Source: Myxococcales bacterium
Lineage (GTDB): Bacteria > Myxococcota > Myxococcia > Myxococcales > Anaeromyxobacteraceae
Reading direction: 5' to 3'
NCBI GenBank assembly: GCA_038320275.1
Contig: JBBQEB010000003.1
Span: 108-64,107 of the forward strand
DNA: 64,000 nt
Of this stretch, positions 51,334 to 60,300 are shown piece after piece. The position numbers were made by a program, and so were the translations under genes. Below the pieces are notes generated by a model that was not told where the DNA came from, did not search any database, and saw only the letters and a program-made list of their open reading frames with translations. Numbering within the stretch: the first letter of the stretch is position 1; every line of letters begins with the position of its first letter.

Positions 51334-52125
51334 ATGCGCTCAGGGCCAGGTCGAGGTTTCCGCCGCAGGCTCGCCGTGGCGCTTCTCGCCCTGGCGTTCC
51401 TCGCGCCAGCCAGACCCGCCGAGGCCCGGCGGCGGCTCCCTCGCAAGGCGCATCCGGAGGGCAGCCTCGTGCTCGAGGGCAGGCCGACGCGCGTTCGCTG
51501 GACCGATGGCGACACCTTCAAGGTCCTCGATGGCCCGTTCGGTGGACTGCTCACGCGGCTCGACGGTTACAACACGCTCGAGAGCTATGGGCCGGTGCAC
51601 CGCTGGGGACGGTGGTCGCCCCCCGAGCTGCTGGCCCTGGCGCAGGAGGCGACGCGCTTCGCCGCCGCGGGCTCCTGGCACTGCACCAGCGCGGGCGCCG
51701 CCGACCGCTACCACCGACTGCTGGTGCGCTGTCCGGATGCGGCGCGCGCGCTCGTGCGCACGGGGCTCGCGATGGTCTATGCCGTCGACGCGGAAGCGAG
51801 GCCCGAGCTGCTCGCCGCGCAGCGGGATGCGCAGCGTGAGGGGCGAGGCATGTGGGCGAAGGGCGTGCCGCGCGGCATCGTGACGAACCTTCACTCGATC
51901 GTCGAGAACGGGGGAGAGGGCGCCTACGACCGCGTCGCGGACACGCGCACCGGACGTGCGATCGCCCGCCCGCACGAGCACGCGTACGCGATGTGCTCGG
52001 AGGTGTGTCAGGCCACCGAGGGCGACACGAGCTGCATGGTGTACGTCCCCTTCGAGCGCCGCTACCGCAACAAGCCGCCCTGCCTGCAGGGATCACCGGC
52101 GCGGCGGAAGCGGCAGGAGCGCTGA
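51334..52125 (+). CDS. Thermonuclease (SNase) family secreted nuclease
   Basis: WTDGDTF, RLDGYNTLE, DRYHRLL, LVRTGLA, AQREGRGMW. Confidence 0.85.
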   Translation: MRSGPGRGFRRRLAVALLALAFLAPARPAEARRRLPRKAHPEGSLVLEGRPTRVRWTDGDTFKVLDGPFGGLLTRLDGYNTLESYGPVHRWGRWSPPELLALAQEATRFAAAGSWHCTSAGAADRYHRLLVRCPDAARALVRTGLAMVYAVDAEARPELLAAQRDAQREGRGMWAKGVPRGIVTNLHSIVENGGEGAYDRVADTRTGRAIARPHEHAYAMCSEVCQATEGDTSCMVYVPFERRYRNKPPCLQGSPARRKRQER

Positions 52126-52995
52126 CGTCGTGCGCAGCTTCTCCGCCCAGGCAGGATGTCGCGACAGCATCCGACGATCCATCCACGGGATGCTCACGCC
52201 GAGGAACAGCGCGGAGATGGCGACGGCGCCGACGCCGCTCCACCACCACGAAGGGGCCGCGGCGAGCCCGAAGAAGAAGACACCCCACCAGAAGAGCACC
52301 TCGCCGAAGTAGTTGGGGTGCCGCGACAGGCGCCAGAGGCCGCTGTCGAGCACCGCCTCCGGATCTCGCCGGGTCCGGGTGAAGGCGCGGAGCTGCCGGT
52401 CGGCGAGCCACTCCACCATGACGGCCGCCGAGGTCACCACCGCCGCGGCGAGGTCGAGCAGGCCAAGCCGGCGCCCGGCCAAGGCGAGCGCCGGGTAGAG
52501 CGGCAGGAGGCCCAGGAACACCCAGACCGTCGGCATGAGGTGGATCGAGACGAGGCTCGCGGGCCAGTAGAGCCGGCCCGTCCTGGCGCGGATCTCCCGG
52601 TATCGAAAGTCCTCGTCCTCGAGCCCGCGCCAGCGGAGGAGCTGGTTTCCGGTGAGTCGCGCGCCCCAGGCGATCACCAGCGCGAGCACGAGGAGCTGGC
52701 GCAGGCCCGGACCGCCAGGGCGGAGCGCTGCCCAGTAGAGCGCGATGGGGAGGGGGGCCACGCTCCAGTACGGGTCGTACACGCTGGAGTTGTCGTGACG
52801 GACGCTGAAGAGGAAGACGACGCCGGTGGCGGCGAGATCGGCCACCGCCGCGGCGAGGATGGGGTGCCGGCCGCGCTGCGTGAGGCCGGCCGCGAGCCCC
52901 GCCAGGAGCGCCGCGCCGTAAGCCAGCGCGAGGACCCCCCGGCCGCGCCTGCCGGCCGCATCAGCCTCCCCAGGTTCCGCGCTGCGCCCGCTCAT
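52093..52995 (-). CDS. DUF1295 / steroid 5-alpha-reductase-like membrane protein
   Basis: NSSVYDPYWS, EDFRY, WLADRQL, GLWRLSRHPNYFGE. Confidence 0.88.
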   Translation of the reverse strand: MSGRSAEPGEADAAGRRGRGVLALAYGAALLAGLAAGLTQRGRHPILAAAVADLAATGVVFLFSVRHDNSSVYDPYWSVAPLPIALYWAALRPGGPGLRQLLVLALVIAWGARLTGNQLLRWRGLEDEDFRYREIRARTGRLYWPASLVSIHLMPTVWVFLGLLPLYPALALAGRRLGLLDLAAAVVTSAAVMVEWLADRQLRAFTRTRRDPEAVLDSGLWRLSRHPNYFGEVLFWWGVFFFGLAAAPSWWWSGVGAVAISALFLGVSIPWMDRRMLSRHPAWAEKLRTTSALLPLPPRR

Positions 52996-53777
52996 CCGTA
53001 GAGCCCGCGCGTCGCTCGCCCCATGAGCCGCACGGACGCCCGGCGGGTGAGCACCCGCCCGAAGAGGAAGGCGGTGATCCTGTTGAGCGCGCCGGGGATG
53101 GTCACCGGGCCGTGCCCCAGCCGCCGCAGCGCGCGCTCCGCCACCGCGTCCGGCTCCATGATGGGGACGCTCCGCTTCGGCTTCGACGCGAGGTAGGCAG
53201 GGGTCCGCACCGGCCCGGCGCGGCAGGCGAGGACGTCCACCCCGCGCTCCGCCAGCTCCACCCAGAGCCCCTCCGCCAGCACGAGGTCGAAAGCTTTGGA
53301 CGCGGCGTAGGACGCCACGTAAGCGGTGCCCTGGCCTCCCGCCAAGGACGCCATGAGGAGGATTCCCCCGCGCCCGCGCGCCGCCAGCCGGGCGCCCAGG
53401 AGGTAGCAGAGCACCACCGGACCGCGGCAGTTCACCTCCACCACGCGCAGGTGAGCCTCGAGCGGCGCATCGAGGAAGGGGCCGATGGCCGAGGCAGCCG
53501 CGTTGTAGACGAGCAGGCCCAGGTCGAGCCCGTCCACGAGGGCTGCAGCGCGCCCGGCGAGATCGGGCGCGGCGAGGTCGAGCGCAGCCGTGCGCACCTC
53601 CACCCCGTGCTTCGCCCGCAGCCGGGCCGCCAGCGCCTCCAGTGGCCCCGCCCGGCGGGCGACGAGCAGGAGGTTCAGTCCGCGGCCGGCGAGGAGCCGC
53701 GCGAAGGACTCGCCCAGACCCTCGGAGGCACCGGCGACGAGCGCCCAGGGGCCATAGCGATCCGCGAACGCGCTCAC
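52992..53777 (-). CDS. Short-chain dehydrogenase/reductase (17beta-HSD/KAR-like)
   Basis: RYGPWALVAGASEGLG, YNAA, YAASKAF; GTG start overlaps the upstream stop. Confidence 0.9.
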   Translation of the reverse strand: MSAFADRYGPWALVAGASEGLGESFARLLAGRGLNLLLVARRAGPLEALAARLRAKHGVEVRTAALDLAAPDLAGRAAALVDGLDLGLLVYNAAASAIGPFLDAPLEAHLRVVEVNCRGPVVLCYLLGARLAARGRGGILLMASLAGGQGTAYVASYAASKAFDLVLAEGLWVELAERGVDVLACRAGPVRTPAYLASKPKRSVPIMEPDAVAERALRRLGHGPVTIPGALNRITAFLFGRVLTRRASVRLMGRATRGLYG

Positions 53778-54310
53778 GCCGCCTCCAGGCCGGCAGCGCC
53801 CGCCGCCGGCTCCGTGAACGGATGGTGCGAGCGCGTCACCCGCCAGAGCACGAGGAAGGGCACCAGCAGCCAGGCGGCGTTCGAACCGATCGTCGCCCAC
53901 GGGTTCGGCGCGGCATGCACACCCTTCACCTCGTCGAAGAGGATGATGAAGACGTTCGTGAACATCATCGCCGCCCACAGGATGCTCGGCGTCCGGATCC
54001 AGTCGCGTCCACGCGCGTAGGCGAACAGCGCCGCCGCGTAGAAGGGGCCGAAGACGCAAACGTCGAGCCAGATGGTGGCGCGGTACCAGGCCGGGCGGGC
54101 GAGCAGCAGCGGGTCCCAGGTGCGCTCGTACCAGTGGATGAGCCGCAGGGCCGCCGCCGGCGGCCACACTGGCTGGGTGAAGTGGGCCGGGTCAGCGATG
54201 ACGATCTGCTCCAGGCTCACCACGTAGGAGATGAAGAACAGGTTCACCGCGAAGAACGCCAGCAACGCCACGTCCAGCGGTCGGCGCGAGAGCGGGATGG
54301 GGCGGCGCAT
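53774..54310 (-). CDS. EXPERA/emopamil-binding-protein family (sterol isomerase-like) membrane protein
   Basis: Four TM helices; WYERTWDPLL, WLDVCVFGPFY, NAAWLLVPFL..WR. Confidence 0.75.
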   Translation of the reverse strand: MRRPIPLSRRPLDVALLAFFAVNLFFISYVVSLEQIVIADPAHFTQPVWPPAAALRLIHWYERTWDPLLLARPAWYRATIWLDVCVFGPFYAAALFAYARGRDWIRTPSILWAAMMFTNVFIILFDEVKGVHAAPNPWATIGSNAAWLLVPFLVLWRVTRSHHPFTEPAAGAAGLEAA

Positions 54311-54360: not shown

Positions 54361-55084
54361 GAGGCTCGGGGGGAGGACGAGGCTCAGGGAAGGGCGAGGC
54401 TCACGGGGAGAACGAGCGAAGCGACGCAGCCGCGAACTGAGGTTGAAGGGACGACGCGGCTCACACGGGAGAACGAGGCTCACGGGAGAACGAGCGAAGG
54501 GCCCGTGCGTCCTGAGGAAGCGGAGCGCCCGGCCTGCGGACGGAACCGCTCCGGGGTCGGACCGCGTGCACGGTCCGTGACGCGGCAATCCAGCCGGGCA
54601 GGCATCGCCGCCCTGCGCGGCACGAAGGCCGTGCCAGCGGGGCCGCGCGCTCCGGCCGCCGCCCGTCAGGAGCCAGCCCGGAAGGCCGTCGCGGAGAGAG
54701 GAAGGAGGCACGGGCCCGAAGCGATGCAGCCGCGAGCCGAGGCTCACGGGAGAACGAGGCTCACGGGAGAACGAGCGAAGGGCCCGTGCGTCCTGAGGAA
54801 GCGGAGCGCCCGGCCTGCGGACGGAACCGCTCCAGGGTCGGACCGCGTGCACGGTCCGTGACGCGGCAATCCAGCCGGGCAGGCATCGCCGCCCTGCGCG
54901 GCACGAAGGCCGTGCCAGCGGGGCCGCGCGCTCCTGCCGCCGTCCGTCAGGGCCAGCCCGGAAGGCCGTCGCGGAGCGACGAAGGAAGCACGGGCCCGAA
55001 GCGATGCAACGGCGAGCCGAGGGGCCAGCCCGGAAGGCCGTCGCGGAGCGAGGAAGGAAGCACGGGCCCGAAGCGGTGCAGCCG
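54361..55084. repeat. Composite tandem repeat: two ~281-bp units plus sub-repeats
   Basis: Units start at 54464 and 54745; an extra ~62-bp copy near 55022-55083; about seven GAGGCTCACGGGAGAAC-like 17-mers. Confidence 0.9.
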
Positions 55085-55136
55085 CCATGGAATGCGTTCC
55101 ACGAGCACAGGGGCGAGGAGTAAGGTCCCGCCCTCG

Positions 55137-56336
55137 ATGGCACCCGATCCCCGCCGCCTCCGCATTGCCTTCGTCATCGACATCTTCGATGGCGTGAAGA
55201 CCGGCGGCGTCATCTCCGCCCAGCGCTTCGTGGCCGGGCTGCGCGAGCGGCACGACGTGGAGGTCATCACCACCGGCCCCGCAGGGCCCGGGCGGACCGA
55301 GCTGCCCGCCTTGCATCCACCCATCTTCCGCAAGCTCATGCGGGAGATGGGCTTCGTGTTCGCCCGCCCCCGCCGCCAGGTGCTGGAGGCCGCCTTCCGG
55401 CGCGCCGACCTCGTGCACGTCCAGTTCCCCTTCCTGCTCGGGATGCGCGCGGCCGCGCTCGCTCGCCGGATGGGAAAGCCGCTCGTCGCCGGGTTCCACG
55501 TTCAGCCCGAGAACATGCTGCGAAACGTCGGGCTGCCCTCGGAAGGCGCGCTGGTGGAGGGGCTCTACCGGCTCTTTTGCGCGCGCCTCTTCGACCTCGC
55601 CGACGCGGTGGTCTGCCCGAGCGCCTTCGCCAGGGACGAGCTCGTGCGGCGCGGGCTCCGCGTCCCGGCAGAGGTCGTCTCGAACGGCATCGACCCCAGG
55701 TTCACGCCCGGGCCAGCCCCCGAGGTCGCGGAAACCGGCGGCGAGGTCCTCGTCCTCTCCGTCGGCCGGCTCGCCCGCGAGAAGAGGCACGACGTCCTCA
55801 TCGAGGGGATCCGCCGCTCGCGCCACGCCGGCCGGGTGAGGCTCGTGGTGACCGGGCGCGGGCCAGAGGAGGCGCGGGTACGCGCCCTCGCGGCGACCCT
55901 GCCACTCCCAGCCCAGGTCACCTTCGTCACCGACGACGAGCTGCTCCGGCTCCTGCGCGCGGCGGACCTCCTCGTCCACGCCTCCGAGGTGGAGCTGGAG
56001 GGGATGGCGGTGCTGGAGGCGATGGGCTGCGGGACGCCCGCGCTCGTCGCGGATGCTCCGGCCAGCGCTTCCCCCTCCCTGGCGGCGGGGCCAGACTTCC
56101 TCTTCCGCCCCGGCGACGCCGGCGACCTCGCCGCGAAGCTCGACCACCTCCTCGACGACCCCGCCGCGCTCCCCGCGGCGCGCGCGCGCTGCCTCGAGCG
56201 CGCGCCCGCCTTCGCGCTGTCCGCCTGCGTCGCGAAGCTGGAGGCGCTCTACCTGCGCGTCGCCTCCGGGGAGGGGGTCAGCCCCCCGTCGGCCGCTCGC
56301 GCCGGACGATCCAGAGCGCCGCCGGCAGGGCGGTGA
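55137..56336 (+). CDS. GT4 glycosyltransferase, cholesterol alpha-glucosyltransferase (HP0421/CapJ)-like
   Basis: FARP..L..AF..AD.VH..FPFLL, GFHVQPEN, CPSAF..EL, SNGIDPRF, VGR..EK, HASEVELEGMAVLEA; recalled similarity to H. pylori CGT, not computed. Confidence 0.75.
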   Translation: MAPDPRRLRIAFVIDIFDGVKTGGVISAQRFVAGLRERHDVEVITTGPAGPGRTELPALHPPIFRKLMREMGFVFARPRRQVLEAAFRRADLVHVQFPFLLGMRAAALARRMGKPLVAGFHVQPENMLRNVGLPSEGALVEGLYRLFCARLFDLADAVVCPSAFARDELVRRGLRVPAEVVSNGIDPRFTPGPAPEVAETGGEVLVLSVGRLAREKRHDVLIEGIRRSRHAGRVRLVVTGRGPEEARVRALAATLPLPAQVTFVTDDELLRLLRAADLLVHASEVELEGMAVLEAMGCGTPALVADAPASASPSLAAGPDFLFRPGDAGDLAAKLDHLLDDPAALPAARARCLERAPAFALSACVAKLEALYLRVASGEGVSPPSAARAGRSRAPPAGR

Positions 56337-58566
56337 AGTCGGCCAGCATGGCGAGGAGGAAGGCCGCCGAGGTCACGACGCCGAACTGGCGCAGCGGGGG
56401 GAAGCTCGAAGCGGCGAGCCCCAGGAATCCGGCCGCGTTGATGAGGGTCGCGAAGACGATCGGGCGCCCCGACACCCGCAGCGTGTGCCGCAGCGCCGGC
56501 TCGAGCGATCGCGCGCCCTCCCGCTCCGCCTCGCCCAGGTGGTGGAAGAAGTGGATCTGGTCGTTCTCGGTGGTGCCGAGCACCGTGGTGGCGATGAGGA
56601 TGGTGGCCACGTTCAGGCTCGCGCCCACGAGCCGCATGCCGAGGAAGGTCGCGAGGATGGCGAAGAGGGACGGGATCATCGCCATGAGCCGCGCGCTCGG
56701 GCTCCTGAAGACGAAGAGGAAGGCGACGAAGATGAGCGCCGCGGTGATGGCAAAGCTCTGCGTCAAGGTGGGGACGAGGCTCGCCCCCACCTTGGCCTGC
56801 ACCATCGACTCGCCCACCACCTGCATCGAGGCGCCGCGAAAGGCCGGGTCCCCCGCCACGGTGCGCTCCCACGCGTCGGAGAGAGCGCGCGCGATGGCCC
56901 GATAGCCGACTTCGTCCCCGCCTCCGCGGAAGGTGACGGTGACCTGAGCGTTGGAGAGCGTCCCCACGTCGAGGAAGCCGCGCAGCTCCGGCTCGGACAG
57001 CAAGAGCCCCTCCACGTCGGCGGCGAGCGCCGCGAAGACCTCGGGATCCTGGGTGAGGCGGTCGCCCTGCCCCGCCAGGTAGCCGCGCAGTCGAAGGAAG
57101 GTGGTGGGCCCGACCACCGCGTTCACCCCGGGCAGCGTCTCCACCGCCGTCGTGAAGCGGTCGAGACCCCGCAGCACCTCCGGGTCGGCGGCGGCTCCCG
57201 GCGGCGTCTTCACCCAGACGCGCGCCACGTCGAGCCCGGACACGTGCTCCCGGAAGAAGAGCATGTCGCGGTGGATGGCGAGCGAGGGGTCGACGTAATC
57301 GAGAGCGTCCACCCCGACGCGCATGGGGGCGAGCCGCCCCGGGATGCCGAGGAGCGCCGCCAACCCGGCGGCCGACAGGGCGAGCGCGCCGACGAGCAGC
57401 GGCCAGCGCAGCCTGTACGTCAGGCGGGGCAGCGCGTCGGCGGCGCGGTCGTAGAGAGCGCTCCGCACCTGCACCGCGCGCCGGGTGGGCGTCCGGAGCA
57501 CCTTCTGCAGCGCTGGAAAGAGCGTGAGCGCGACCACCCAGGCGATGGCGAGCCCTGCCGCGGTCCAGAGGCCCATCTCGCGCACCGGCCGGATCTTGGA
57601 GACGCCGAGCGCGCCGAAGCCCAGCACCGCCGCGACTGCGGAGGCGGTCACCGGCAGCGCCTTGTTGGCGAGCGCCCAGGCCTGGTGCGCGTCCGTCGAG
57701 GTGCCCTCCGGCTGGTCGACGAACCGCGAGTGCAGGTAGACCAGGGTGGCGAGCGTCGTCACGAGGATGGTGAGGGGCACCAGCGCGGAGACGACGGTGA
57801 AGGAGAAGCCGAGGAGCCGGCCCACCCCCACGCCCAGCGCCACCGACGCCCCGAGCGCGAGCAGGATGGCGAGGAGCGAGCGCGGGGAGCGGTAGAGGTA
57901 GAGCGACAGCACGACCACGAGGAGCCCGAAGAGCGGGAACGAACGCACCGACGCGCTGCCCGAGGCGTGCTCGATCCAGGACTCGACGTAGGGCGCGCCG
58001 ACCTTGCGAAGCTCGCGCAGGCTCCCCCGCGGCGCCCGCGCCAGGGCAGCGTCGATCTGCGCCAGCACCTCGTCGCGCTCGCGGGCGCCGTGCACGTCGA
58101 GCCCGACCGGGATTCCGTGGAAGTGGTCGCCGACGAGTCCCTGCCGCCGGAAGAAATCCGCCCCGGTGGCGAAGCGGCGAAAGGCGGCGGCGCCCTCCGG
58201 CGTGGGCGCAAAGCCGGGGTGAGCCCGGCGGTAGACGTCGAGCGCCGAGTAGGGATGCGCGCGCGCCACGCTCCGCAGCGCGGCCTCGACGCCCTCGAGG
58301 TCGCGCAGCACCTCCGGGCGCCAGGGGTCGTCCGCCTCGAGGAGCAGGATGACCAGCGCGCCCTCCGGGAAGACGGTCTGGAACTCGCGGGTCGCGACGA
58401 CATCGGGATCGGAGGGGACCACCAGACGGTCGATCCCGCTCTCGGAAGCGATGCGCGTCGCGAGCAGGGCGGCCGCCGGCACGAGCAGCGCGTAGGCCAC
58501 CAGGATGGGAAACCGGGCCGCGACGACGGCGCGGAAGACGCGCTCGAGCGGGGAGGGGGCGGGCAC
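56278..58566 (-). CDS. MMPL/RND lipid transporter (BstA-like)
   Basis: Two periplasmic-loop/TM-bundle repeats; LGTTENDQIHF, GRPIVFATLINAAGF, SFPPLRQFG; GTG start inferred. Confidence 0.85.
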   Translation of the reverse strand: MPAPSPLERVFRAVVAARFPILVAYALLVPAAALLATRIASESGIDRLVVPSDPDVVATREFQTVFPEGALVILLLEADDPWRPEVLRDLEGVEAALRSVARAHPYSALDVYRRAHPGFAPTPEGAAAFRRFATGADFFRRQGLVGDHFHGIPVGLDVHGARERDEVLAQIDAALARAPRGSLRELRKVGAPYVESWIEHASGSASVRSFPLFGLLVVVLSLYLYRSPRSLLAILLALGASVALGVGVGRLLGFSFTVVSALVPLTILVTTLATLVYLHSRFVDQPEGTSTDAHQAWALANKALPVTASAVAAVLGFGALGVSKIRPVREMGLWTAAGLAIAWVVALTLFPALQKVLRTPTRRAVQVRSALYDRAADALPRLTYRLRWPLLVGALALSAAGLAALLGIPGRLAPMRVGVDALDYVDPSLAIHRDMLFFREHVSGLDVARVWVKTPPGAAADPEVLRGLDRFTTAVETLPGVNAVVGPTTFLRLRGYLAGQGDRLTQDPEVFAALAADVEGLLLSEPELRGFLDVGTLSNAQVTVTFRGGGDEVGYRAIARALSDAWERTVAGDPAFRGASMQVVGESMVQAKVGASLVPTLTQSFAITAALIFVAFLFVFRSPSARLMAMIPSLFAILATFLGMRLVGASLNVATILIATTVLGTTENDQIHFFHHLGEAEREGARSLEPALRHTLRVSGRPIVFATLINAAGFLGLAASSFPPLRQFGVVTSAAFLLAMLADFTALPAALWIVRRERPTGG

Positions 58567-58630: not shown

Positions 58631-59503
58631 ATGACGACCGCGCTCGCCACCGCACTCGCAGCCCTGCTCGCCGCCGCGCCCGCCGCCGGCTCCTCGAAGC
58701 CGGCCAAGCCCGCCAAGGCCATCGTGCCCCAGCTCACGACCATCGTGGCCTGTGCTCCGGGGTACCCCGGCACCACCGCCGAGGCCCAGCCCGGCATGAA
58801 CGCCTTCGCCGCGGCCGTGTCGAAGGCCGTTGGCCTACCGCCCACCTCGGTGAAGGCGCTCTACGTCCCCAGCGAGAAAGCCGGGCTCGCCCGCATGCAG
58901 CAGCCGGACGTCGGGGTCGCGCTGGTGACGCTTCCGTTCTACGTGGCGCACGCGGCCGAGCTCCGGCTCCAGCCGCAGCTCACCGTCGAGAACGAGGGCC
59001 GCGGGCCCTCCGAGAGCTGGACCTTGGTGGCCCGGAAGGGCGCGTTGAAGGACGCGGCCGGGCTCGCCGGCTTTCGCATCGAGTCCATCGCTGGCTACGC
59101 GCCCGGGTTCGTGCGGGCCGCGCTGGCCGGCTGGGGCGCGGTGCCGAAGGAGGTCCCCATCGCGCCCACCCGCAAGGTGCTCACCTCGCTGCGCCAGGCG
59201 GCCGGGGGCGAGAAGGTGGCCGTGCTGCTCGACGCAGGCCAGGCAGCCTCGCTCGCGAGCCTGCCCTTCGCGGGCGAGCTGGAGGTGGTGGCGAAGTCGG
59301 AGCCGCTGCCAGCCGCCCTGGTGTGCGTCCTCACGCCGAGGATGAAGCCCTCCAAGTTCCGGCCGCTGAGCGGTGCGATGCTGCGCGTGGCGGGCGATCC
59401 CGAGGGGGCGGCCGCGCTGAAGGGCATCCGCATGGTGCGCTTCGCGCCCCTCGACGCCGCCGTGCACGCCTCGCTGAGCAAGGTCATGGAAGCCTCGCGT
59501 TGA
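58631..59503 (+). CDS. PhnD/phosphonate-binding-like periplasmic protein (BstB-like)
   Basis: Signal peptide; PBP2-like pattern (APGYPG, LVARKG, AVLLD..Q, VVAKSEPLP); no cognate ABC genes adjacent. Confidence 0.65.
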   Translation: MTTALATALAALLAAAPAAGSSKPAKPAKAIVPQLTTIVACAPGYPGTTAEAQPGMNAFAAAVSKAVGLPPTSVKALYVPSEKAGLARMQQPDVGVALVTLPFYVAHAAELRLQPQLTVENEGRGPSESWTLVARKGALKDAAGLAGFRIESIAGYAPGFVRAALAGWGAVPKEVPIAPTRKVLTSLRQAAGGEKVAVLLDAGQAASLASLPFAGELEVVAKSEPLPAALVCVLTPRMKPSKFRPLSGAMLRVAGDPEGAAALKGIRMVRFAPLDAAVHASLSKVMEASR

Positions 59504-60300
59504 ACGGGAGGTGGGTGGCCCCGCTGACCGCGCTCGCCCTGGCGCTGGGCTGCGCGCACGCGCTTCCGCCAGCGCGGCCCGAGCCCGCGGCCGCGGCTCC
59601 TGCCGCGGGAGGCAGCGCCTCGGAGCTCCTGGCCCGCGCCGAGGCGCGCTGGGCGGGGCGGCCCGATCCGGCCGCGGTGGGCGAGGCGGAGGAGCTGTAC
59701 CTGGCCGCGGCCCGGGCGGATCCACGGGCGACGGGGGGCCTCGCCGGAGCGGTGAAGGTGAAGGCCTGGCGCGCGGAACGCGAGCGCGACGACGCGCGCC
59801 GCGCTGCCCTGGCGGAGGGCGCAGTGGAGGCCGGGCAGTGGTGCGAGGCGCGAGCGCCTGCGAGCGCGGAGTGCGCCTATGCGCTCGCGATCGGGCTCGG
59901 CCTGCAGGCGCGGGAGCGGCGGGGAACGGCGCTCGATGGCCTGAAGCTCATGGTTGCGAAGCTCCGTCAGGCAGAGGCGGCCGACCCGAGGCTGGACCGG
60001 GCCGGGCCTGCGCGCGTGCTGGCTCAGGTGCTGGCGCAGGCGCCGGGCTGGCCGCTCGGGCCCGGCGACACGGACGCGGCGGTGGAGGCGGCACGCCGGG
60101 CCGTGTCGCTCTTCCCCGACCACCCGCCCAACCAGCTCGCGCTGGCGCTCGCGCTCCAGAAGAACGACGAGCCCGGCGTCGCGCGCGCGGCGGCGGAGCG
60201 CGCGGTGGCGCTCGCGCGGGCGGCCCGGGACGAGCCCGACGCTGCAGGGTGGATCGAGGAGGGGCTGCGGCTCGCCGGCGGAGGGACGGACGAGAGCTGA
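59500..60300 (+). CDS. TPR/TatT-like lipoprotein (BstC-like)
   Basis: LALGC lipobox; CAYALAIGLG, AGPARVL, APGWPLGPGD, AVSLFPDHPPNQL; TTG start overlaps the upstream stop. Confidence 0.7.
   Translation: MNGRWVAPLTALALALGCAHALPPARPEPAAAAPAAGGSASELLARAEARWAGRPDPAAVGEAEELYLAAARADPRATGGLAGAVKVKAWRAERERDDARRAALAEGAVEAGQWCEARAPASAECAYALAIGLGLQARERRGTALDGLKLMVAKLRQAEAADPRLDRAGPARVLAQVLAQAPGWPLGPGDTDAAVEAARRAVSLFPDHPPNQLALALALQKNDEPGVARAAAERAVALARAARDEPDAAGWIEEGLRLAGGGTDES

Follow-up and report, generated by a model that had tools for sequence, protein, structure and literature searches.

The window considered here is a stretch of 64,000 nucleotides from contig JBBQEB010000003.1 of a Myxococcales bacterium of the family Anaeromyxobacteraceae (GenBank assembly GCA_038320275.1). 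It includes a gene for a GT4-family glycosyltransferase (the window GT4) related to HP0421, the cholesterol alpha-glucosyltransferase (CGT) of Helicobacter pylori, and we give an even chance to the proposal that the product of this gene alpha-glycosylates sterols (or sterol-like triterpenoids) in concert with a Bst-like transporter. The proposal is based on homology, motif integrity, synteny and phyletic patterns. The protein belongs to the subfamily of HP0421 and its catalytic motifs are intact, which argues for a steryl glycosyltransferase. The sterol reading draws further on its partners, which include homologues of two sterol-binding proteins (BstB and BstC) and an EXPERA protein whose best structural match is the sigma-2 receptor; on the GT4 genes of the sister family, found only in genomes with an oxidosqualene cyclase (OSC), and of Methyloprofundus, found in an OSC/epoxidase cluster; and on the nesting of EXPERA within GT4 presence and the tendency of the GT4, RND and Bst-like genes to stay together in varying orders.

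The reading frame of the gene is open from 54786 to 56336. Translation from the ATG at 55137 gives a 399 amino acid product that is the same as that of the public gene call P0003 (100% identity, 100% coverage), and orthologues begin aligning at residues 2–8 of this product. Both halves of the two-domain GT-B architecture of the GT4 family are recognised above cut-off by Pfam, with Glyco_transf_4 (PF13439) at residues 23–188 (9.8e-24) and Glycos_transf_1 (PF00534) at residues 200–355 (4.5e-27). The GRxxxEK motif is intact (VGRLAREK in the window GT4, VGRYSNEK in HP0421), as is the E-x7-E motif (ELEGMAVLE and ESEAIACLE, respectively), and residues E215, K216, E286/E288 and E294 are invariant or nearly so in alignment A1. 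The genome carries the gene once only, as judged by tblastn, and the named sources of its best homologues are Anaeromyxobacter and Anaeromyxobacteraceae. The genes of the island to which it belongs are intact and are conserved at 60–77% between genera, which argues that they are in use. The G+C content of the window is 73%. Ahead of the gene lies a repeat-rich intergenic stretch (54400–55136); the upstream in-frame extension of the open reading frame, which is low in complexity and repeat-derived, contains GQPGRPSRS[D/E]EGSTGPKRC twice and lies outside the GT4 protein.

The best match of the window GT4 to a solved structure is 3qhp_A (E 4.4e-24), the next match in the PDB being far behind (5.9e-08, 35 bits). 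Used as a query, the aligned 3qhp fragment returns H. pylori genomes at 94–98% identity, from which we take 3qhp to be the H. pylori protein. The structure comprises 166 residues, corresponding to the C-terminal domain of HP0421; the N-terminal (acceptor) domain is absent from it. BLASTP comparison with a full-length HP0421 orthologue (L015:2386-3555, 389 amino acids) gives 200 bits over 370 amino acids, with 30% identity, 49% positives and 8 gaps, a likeness that is far beyond chance. A preliminary description of the window had named seven motif blocks as colinear with HP0421, and all seven are matched in order in this alignment. Given as window/HP0421, the N-terminal blocks are FARP/FAKP, AFRRADLVH/AFKGADMIH, FPFLL/LPFLL and GFHVQPE/SFHLQPE; these are followed by CPSAF..EL/CPSKF..EL, SNGIDPRF/SNGFDPMF, GRGPEE/GKGPDE and HASEVELE/HTANVESE, and finally by LFRPGDAGDLAAKLD/LFEPNNAKDLSAKID.

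A search of 1.84 billion protein representatives found 74,863 relatives of the window GT4 at E<=1e-3; tightening the threshold to E<=1e-30 leaves only 243 clusters, with the Helicobacter cluster (P0213) among the ~90 best of them. The trees of the subfamily come from quick maximum-likelihood searches. In them the HP0421-like subfamily forms a branch with 99% support in the Shimodaira–Hasegawa-like approximate likelihood ratio test (SH-aLRT), and the window GT4 falls into a 27-row clade (99%) with orthologues of its own and the sister family. The Helicobacter CGT is found on a different major branch, deep inside a clade of gut/anaerobe proteins, and the trees contain no clade uniting it with the window GT4 to the exclusion of members from other contexts. 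Proteins nearer to HP0421 than the window GT4 (34–45% identity) come from Eisenbergiella, a Bacteroidaceae metagenome-assembled genome (MAG), Ruminococcus, Treponema and Acholeplasmatales. We therefore place the window GT4 and HP0421, on these trees, in the same small GT4 subfamily, not as sisters, and the earlier statement that the one closely resembles the other holds for the subfamily but not for the adverb, given the 30% identity, the separate branches and the nearer gut-anaerobe proteins. HP0421 is the sole member of the subfamily that we could identify as experimentally characterised or solved.

Some other members of the subfamily deserve mention. Many of the gut-anaerobe relatives of HP0421 are ~600 amino acids long, and in the single one scanned (L046:2395-4302, from Eisenbergiella porci) the GT4 is fused to a PlsC-type acyltransferase domain; such fusions could produce acylated glycolipids in one protein. 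In a metagenome locus (L132:4076-10448) a subfamily member interrupts an operon for a branched-chain 2-oxoacid dehydrogenase, with E1-beta on one side of it, E2 on the other and an AMP-binding enzyme preceding, a fatty-acid-related context. The homologues in the 'Azospirillum sp. CAG:239' MAG (L050) and in a Bacteroidaceae MAG (L052) are near-identical (branch lengths ~0.01), which points to binning error or recent transfer, and a 507-bp contig (L039) of the Mangrovihabitans endophyticus assembly that is 96% identical to H. pylori cgt is most likely a contamination of this actinomycete assembly.

Links to sterol synthesis come from other lineages. Across a phylum sample of 301 genomes, GT4 is found in the window's own family, in 11 of 115 sister-family genomes and in one further family. 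All 11 of the GT4-bearing sister-family genomes encode an OSC-like cyclase, compared with 75 of the 115 overall. These cyclases score 190–200 bits, against >400 bits for squalene-hopene cyclase (SHC), and a squalene epoxidase gene lies 3–7 kb from the cyclase gene in each of the five GT4-bearing genomes checked. A scan of metagenomes added eight loci, all from one clade (39–44% identity to the window GT4), in which an OSC homologue is located 1.2–5 kb from the GT4 gene; being close relatives, the eight count as one or few events. Where members of this OSC-linked clade carry names, these are Methyloprofundus and a methanotrophic symbiont of Bathymodiolus. At locus L110:3377-9905 (contig Ga0209292_1000005, 403 kb, ~40% G+C at the locus) an epoxidase-OSC pair and a TPR-GT4-FA_hydroxylase trio are arranged divergently, and the best natural PDB match of the TPR protein is BstC; judged by its predicted products, the locus is a sterol cluster that includes a glycosyltransferase of its own. 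Conjugated, acid-labile sterols, with neither structure nor enzymes identified, are reported from Enhygromyxa, Calothrix and Planctomycetes (PMC10202945). No publication that we found connects a glycosyltransferase with bacterial sterol clusters or with Bst genes, although our coverage of the literature was incomplete and this is no proof of novelty.

The genes that accompany the window GT4 are listed in Table 1. The preliminary description placed an MMPL gene next to it, overlapping convergently by 59 bp, and this is borne out: the stops are at 56336 and 56278, among orthologues the C-terminus of either protein shifts by no more than a few residues, and comparable overlaps are seen in locus L077 and in Anaeromyxobacter sp. 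SG26. The RND protein matches MMPL and the Sterol-sensing domain in Pfam (2.2e-07) and the HAE3 model TIGR00921 with 147 bits, whilst HpnN models failed (71/752 and 34/1100 bits). Its orthologues, with 68–78% identity, adjoin GT4 in two families. For the BstB-like protein, whose start was set at the methionine ahead of the signal-like peptide MTTALATALAALL, the Pfam match is Phosphonate-bd (5.8e-10) and the only significant PDB match is 7t1m (MCA1014, 2.4e-12), which we take to be BstB because this Methylococcus PhnD-fold entry stands beside the BstC entry 7t1s (PMC10942540). The BstC-like protein likewise has a single significant PDB match, to 7t1s itself (1.8e-13), and its reading frame begins just before that of the BstB-like gene has ended. 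The position of the BstB-like gene next to the RND gene is conserved, as is that of the BstC-like gene after it, so that the composition of a BstABC-type system (RND/MMPL pump, PhnD-fold protein and TPR lipoprotein) is complete and its gene order conserved. In Methylococcus, BstA (the RND pump), BstB and BstC bind C4-methyl sterols (PMC10942540). Matches to an 'orf408' in this region correspond to an antisense frame of the BstB and BstC genes and do not mark a gene.

Table 1. Genes of the GT4 island and of the neighbouring operon (positions are those of the window)
Feature	Position	Strand	Remarks
GT4 retaining glycosyltransferase, HP0421-like subfamily	55137..56336	+	399 aa; Pfam, PDB, BLASTP; main finding
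RND/MMPL (HAE3-type) inner-membrane transporter, BstA/HpnN-like	56278..58566	-	start approximate (58548-58566)
PhnD-fold periplasmic protein, BstB homologue	58631..59503	+	divergent from RND gene; Phosphonate-bd, 7t1m
TPR lipoprotein (lipobox LALGC), BstC homologue	59500..60300	+	7t1s; coordinates by tblastn
EXPERA/EBP-superfamily membrane protein	53774..54310	-	178 aa; first of three operon genes; ATG 54310
Short-chain dehydrogenase/reductase (SDR)	52992..53777	-	second operon gene; Pfam adh_short 1.5e-29
DUF1295 membrane protein	52093..52995	-	third operon gene; Pfam PF06966 1e-45

On the other side of the window GT4 is an operon of three genes. The EXPERA protein matches PF05241 (1.1e-11, 45.5 bits against a cut-off of 25.7), and the PDB match mentioned above, to the sigma-2 receptor/TMEM97, has an E value of 1.3e-08. 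The SDR gene is syntenic with those for EXPERA and DUF1295 in loci L063–L066, L071, L075, L081 and L175. The Pfam family of the third protein, DUF1295, is one that we take to belong to the steroid-reductase/ICMT-like clan; its gene immediately precedes GT4, in the same orientation, in L065, L080 and L086–L088, and adjoins the RND gene in genus g9. EXPERA is found in 15 of 18 GT4-bearing genomes of the family and in none of 22 others, numbers that, like all phyletic counts given here, carry no correction for kinship between genomes. The presence of EXPERA is nested within that of GT4, three GT4-bearing genomes (G026, G030 and G013) being without it.

The GT4, RND, BstB-like and BstC-like genes remain neighbours in two families and on metagenome contigs while their order varies, with at least four arrangements. 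In G045 and G019 the groups DUF1295-SDR-EXPERA, BstC-BstB and GT4-RND follow one another, with GT4 and RND on the same strand; G010 has EXPERA-SDR-DUF1295-GT4 on a single strand; and in G022 GT4 and RND are followed by BstB-BstC-EXPERA-SDR-DUF1295. The core of GT4, RND and BstB-BstC is kept in the sister family (genera g17 and g18) and on many metagenome contigs, and is also present in the cultured Anaeromyxobacter sp. SG26. Two SHC-bearing genomes (G025 and G058) have RND-BstB-BstC and no GT4. A paralogue of the RND protein (59–64% identity) is encoded inside the canonical hopanoid cluster of relatives, together with BstB/BstC-like proteins, a polyprenyl synthase, an Omp85-like protein, PAP2, HpnG, SHC, squalene synthase, HpnE and HpnA. 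Each of the four genomes with both GT4 and SHC has two RND matches: in G024 and G026 the second copy is in hpn context, whilst G030 and G054 have a second copy (67%) that adjoins a BstC-like gene and is without hpn neighbours. Genomes with neither GT4 nor cyclase have no RND copy, with the exception of G035, and G060 has GT4 and no RND match; both of these assemblies are ~80% complete.

Two side observations concern the transporter in this family. The genomes that have the RND gene are, with very few exceptions, those with the GT4 island, the hopanoid cluster or both. In addition, SHC-bearing Anaeromyxobacteraceae have RND, BstB/BstC-like, Omp85-like and PAP2 genes in the hopanoid cluster (L061, that is G015:C1:2316000-2335000, as well as L162, L163 and L168), and this gene content suggests that hopanoid transport in them may be of Bst type rather than HpnN/HpnM type.

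How might these proteins work together? What follows on the lipid acceptor, the donated sugar, the direction in which the transporter works and the reactions of the three-gene operon is our inference. The enzyme would be a membrane-associated, retaining (alpha-linking) lipid glycosyltransferase of the HP0421 subfamily. With a UDP-sugar as donor it would attach a hexose, on the cytoplasmic side of the inner membrane, most likely to the 3-hydroxyl of a sterol or sterol-like polycyclic triterpenoid. The Bst-like system (RND pump, PhnD-fold binder and TPR lipoprotein) would carry the lipid between the inner and outer membranes and, in most Anaeromyxobacteraceae, the EXPERA-SDR-DUF1295 operon would remodel the rings by chemistry of isomerase, 3-hydroxyl/3-keto and enone-reductase type. 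The sterol itself would be acquired from the environment; H. pylori, for comparison, takes up host cholesterol.

A number of findings weigh against the steryl glycosyltransferase. The genome (G000, a MAG of 4.1 Mb in 343 contigs, 90.7% complete) contains no squalene-hopene or oxidosqualene cyclase (PF13243) and no squalene epoxidase (PF08491). Nor does it contain a squalene synthase, its sole SQS_PSY homologue being part of a carotenoid cluster, and near-complete island-bearing relatives are also without cyclase, epoxidase or squalene synthase. No documentation of sterol uptake by free-living Myxococcota was found in the literature. The GT4 and RND genes are convergent in the window, not co-transcribed. 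In the quick trees the clades of Helicobacter, of Methyloprofundus and the two that are linked to Bst genes are not sisters, and the clade sister to the window's has non-sterol contexts, lying either within a branched-chain 2-oxoacid dehydrogenase operon or amid glycoside hydrolases. The link between GT4 and sterol synthesis is therefore not universal in the subfamily, and the acceptor cannot be read from subfamily membership. Neither is the class of transporter specific to sterols, since RND, BstB and BstC paralogues are encoded in the hopanoid cluster. Finally, automatic names of the Joint Genome Institute (JGI) call many of the orthologues 1,2-diacylglycerol 3-alpha-glucosyltransferase.

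The missing pathway was followed further. A tblastn search of the genome with the SHC, OSC, epoxidase, HpnE, HpnG and PAP2 of relatives gave no match, and neither squalene synthesis nor a cyclase for an endogenous steryl or hopanyl glycoside was found; epoxidase was also absent from all five of the near-complete island-bearing relatives checked for it. In a sample of 61 genomes of the family, GT4 is present in 32 and a cyclase in 15: 4 have both, 28 GT4 only, 11 cyclase only and 18 neither. Genus g9 has GT4 in 11 of 11 genomes and a cyclase in none of them. The odds ratio for co-occurrence in this sample is 0.23, with the caveat that relatives are not independent, and genomes of the family tend to carry one or other of the GT4/Bst island and the hopanoid cluster rather than both. 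As a side observation, the carotenoid cluster (contig C175) encodes a lycopene cyclase CrtY, a CrtB-type synthase (the SQS_PSY match) and a GT1 (CrtX-like) glycosyltransferase. Because cyclase, epoxidase and squalene synthase are all absent from the genome, any sterol acceptor would have to come from outside the cell. The suggestion of the preliminary description that a GT4 beside an MMPL protein makes steryl or hopanyl glucosides is thus upheld in part only. Its steryl half agrees with the Bst-like partners and the OSC links; a steryl glucoside made from endogenous sterol is not supported, given the missing pathway, and neither is a hopanyl glucoside, given the absence of SHC and hpn genes from the genome and the presence of a cyclase in only 4 of the 32 GT4-bearing genomes.

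A wider picture can be drawn tentatively, and we regard it as possible though rather doubtful. The cyclase-less Anaeromyxobacteraceae may be free-living scavengers that import plant, fungal or prey sterols, remodel their rings through the EXPERA-SDR-DUF1295 operon, alpha-glycosylate them by means of the GT4 and, via the Bst-like transporter, place them in the envelope in lieu of the hopanoids made by relatives. The subfamily would then be the missing sterol-conjugating enzyme of sterol-producing methanotrophs and myxobacteria, and the Helicobacter CGT a host-adapted offshoot.

Three other acceptors have to be weighed against a sterol. The window GT4 could be a glycosyltransferase for diacylglycerol (DAG) or another glycerolipid, again alpha-linking, with its glycoglycerolipid reaching the outer membrane via the RND/BstB/BstC-like system and the EXPERA-SDR-DUF1295 operon either unrelated or acting on acyl or alkyl chains. 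GT4 is the family of the bacterial DAG glycosyltransferases (PMC8231724), and DAG, being present in every cell, would explain how the protein functions without a cyclase. The nesting of the Helicobacter CGT among gut-anaerobe homologues, many of them ~600 amino acids long and the one scanned PlsC-fused, hints at glycerolipid ancestry, and the sister clade has a fatty-acid-primer context. We nevertheless consider a glycerolipid acceptor unlikely, for curated DAG-glycosyltransferase models give 17–21 bits where HP0421 gives 200, and the conserved partners include no phospholipid or DAG enzyme. It would also leave unexplained why homologues of sterol binders are among the partners, why EXPERA tracks GT4, why GT4 in the sister family is limited to OSC genomes and why one clade lies in an OSC cluster. 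In NCBIfam the scores are 21.2 bits for alMGS (NF049988, cut-off 400), 16.7 for Dgs (NF049987, cut-off 500) and 51 for IagA/BgsA (NF053513, cut-off 460); the best model, for GlcNAc (N-acetylglucosamine)-phosphatidylglycerol synthase, gives 72 bits against a cut-off of 480, and no cut-off is reached. By these scores the window GT4 does not fit the models for DAG, lipoteichoic acid-anchor or GlcNAc-phosphatidylglycerol synthases, and they do not refute the preliminary description in the way that it had named, by a clustering with DAG alpha-glucosyltransferases and glucosylation of DAG only.

Alternatively, the acceptor could be some other endogenous hydroxylated lipid, made or tailored by the EXPERA-SDR-DUF1295 operon and exported as a glycoside by the Bst-like system: a non-triterpenoid isoprenoid, another polycyclic alcohol or a long-chain alcohol. 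That the module occurs in genomes without any triterpenoid pathway fits well here, as does the tight linkage of EXPERA, SDR and DUF1295 to GT4 (a same-strand operon in L065), and the service of Bst-like paralogues to hopanoids in relatives implies a broad substrate range. The neighbourhood offers no candidate lipid or pathway, though, the carotenoid cluster already has a GT1 glycosyltransferase of its own, GT4-positive genomes without EXPERA exist and the OSC linkage of other lineages would go unexplained, all of which makes such a lipid improbable in our view. A hopanoid glycosyltransferase, making a hopanyl or bacteriohopanepolyol glycoside for an HpnN-like exporter, is far less credible still and we give it very little weight. 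The adjacent RND protein is close to that of the hopanoid cluster, a cluster that also has BstB/BstC-like genes, HpnN models match weakly and four genomes combine GT4 with SHC. Against this, SHC, HpnE, HpnG and squalene synthase are missing from the genome, 28 of the 32 GT4-bearing genomes of the family (including all 11 of g9) have no cyclase, two distinct RND sets are present wherever GT4 and cyclase co-occur, and GT4 is never found in the hpn cluster. On the phyletic pattern and the absent hpn genes, hopanyl glucoside was rejected.

Some narrower candidates were also rejected. The Agt/GTcp type of DAG enzyme was rejected on its motif (below). A ceramide acceptor was set aside since the ceramide glycosyltransferase of B. 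fragilis, whose nearest structure is reported to be PimA and not 3QHP (PMC9692976), falls outside the HP0421 subfamily; the Spt pathway was not searched for. A carotenoid glycoside was set aside since the carotenoid cluster has its own GT1 enzyme and the SQS_PSY match is of CrtB type.

If a sterol is indeed the acceptor, what would follow? The only characterised bacterial sterol alpha-glycosyltransferase that we found in the literature is the H. pylori enzyme, the GT2 enzyme of Borrelia making a beta-galactoside (PMC8168883). A subfamily whose genes accompany Bst-type transporters in Myxococcota and a cyclase/epoxidase cluster in Methyloprofundus would provide a clonable candidate for the sterol-conjugating step. 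The island is found in triterpenoid-less genomes, mostly where the hopanoid cluster is absent, and free-living soil and sediment bacteria may therefore acquire and modify eukaryotic sterols. If they do, the interpretation of sterol, stanol and steryl-glycoside signals in sediments would be affected, and so would ideas on how Helicobacter came to glucosylate cholesterol. Anaeromyxobacter sp. SG26, which is cultured and has the core genes, makes the idea of sterol acquisition testable.

Among known systems, the eukaryotic sterol 3-beta-glucosyltransferases (UGT80/Atg26) are inverting GT1 enzymes that form a beta-linkage and have no detectable homology to GT4. If our prediction is true, they would share the substrate class and a steryl glycoside product with the window GT4, as analogues and not relatives. 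The DAG alpha-glucosyltransferases (alMGS, Dgs, IagA/BgsA and Agt/GTcp) are, like it, retaining GT4 enzymes of GT-B fold, peripheral membrane proteins and of similar size, but Agt/GTcp carry the signature FPSxTDTFG (PMC8231724) where the window GT4 has HASEVELEG. The HpnN exporter and the window pump are alike in that the latter is an HAE3/MMPL RND protein with weak HpnN matches and a close paralogue in the hopanoid cluster; they differ in that the window pump is below the HpnN cut-offs and its genome is without hopanoid genes. With BstA, BstB and BstC of Methylococcus capsulatus (eLife 2024, PMC10942540) the window system shares the three-part composition, although its proteins are distant (E ~1e-12) and predicted from sequence. 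The Methylococcus genes are linked to sdmAB/osc, those of the window to a glycosyltransferase and an EXPERA operon with no sterol synthesis, and the paper on Bst has no mention of a glycosyltransferase (PMC10942540). There remains Cgt/HP0421 itself, which is of the same GT4 subfamily, colinear over its full length, similar in size (389 against 399 amino acids) and equipped with the same E-x7-E and GRxxxEK motifs, and whose host, like that of the window GT4, is unable to make sterol; the two are set apart by their 30% identity, their separate clades and the free-living, environmental life of the window organism.

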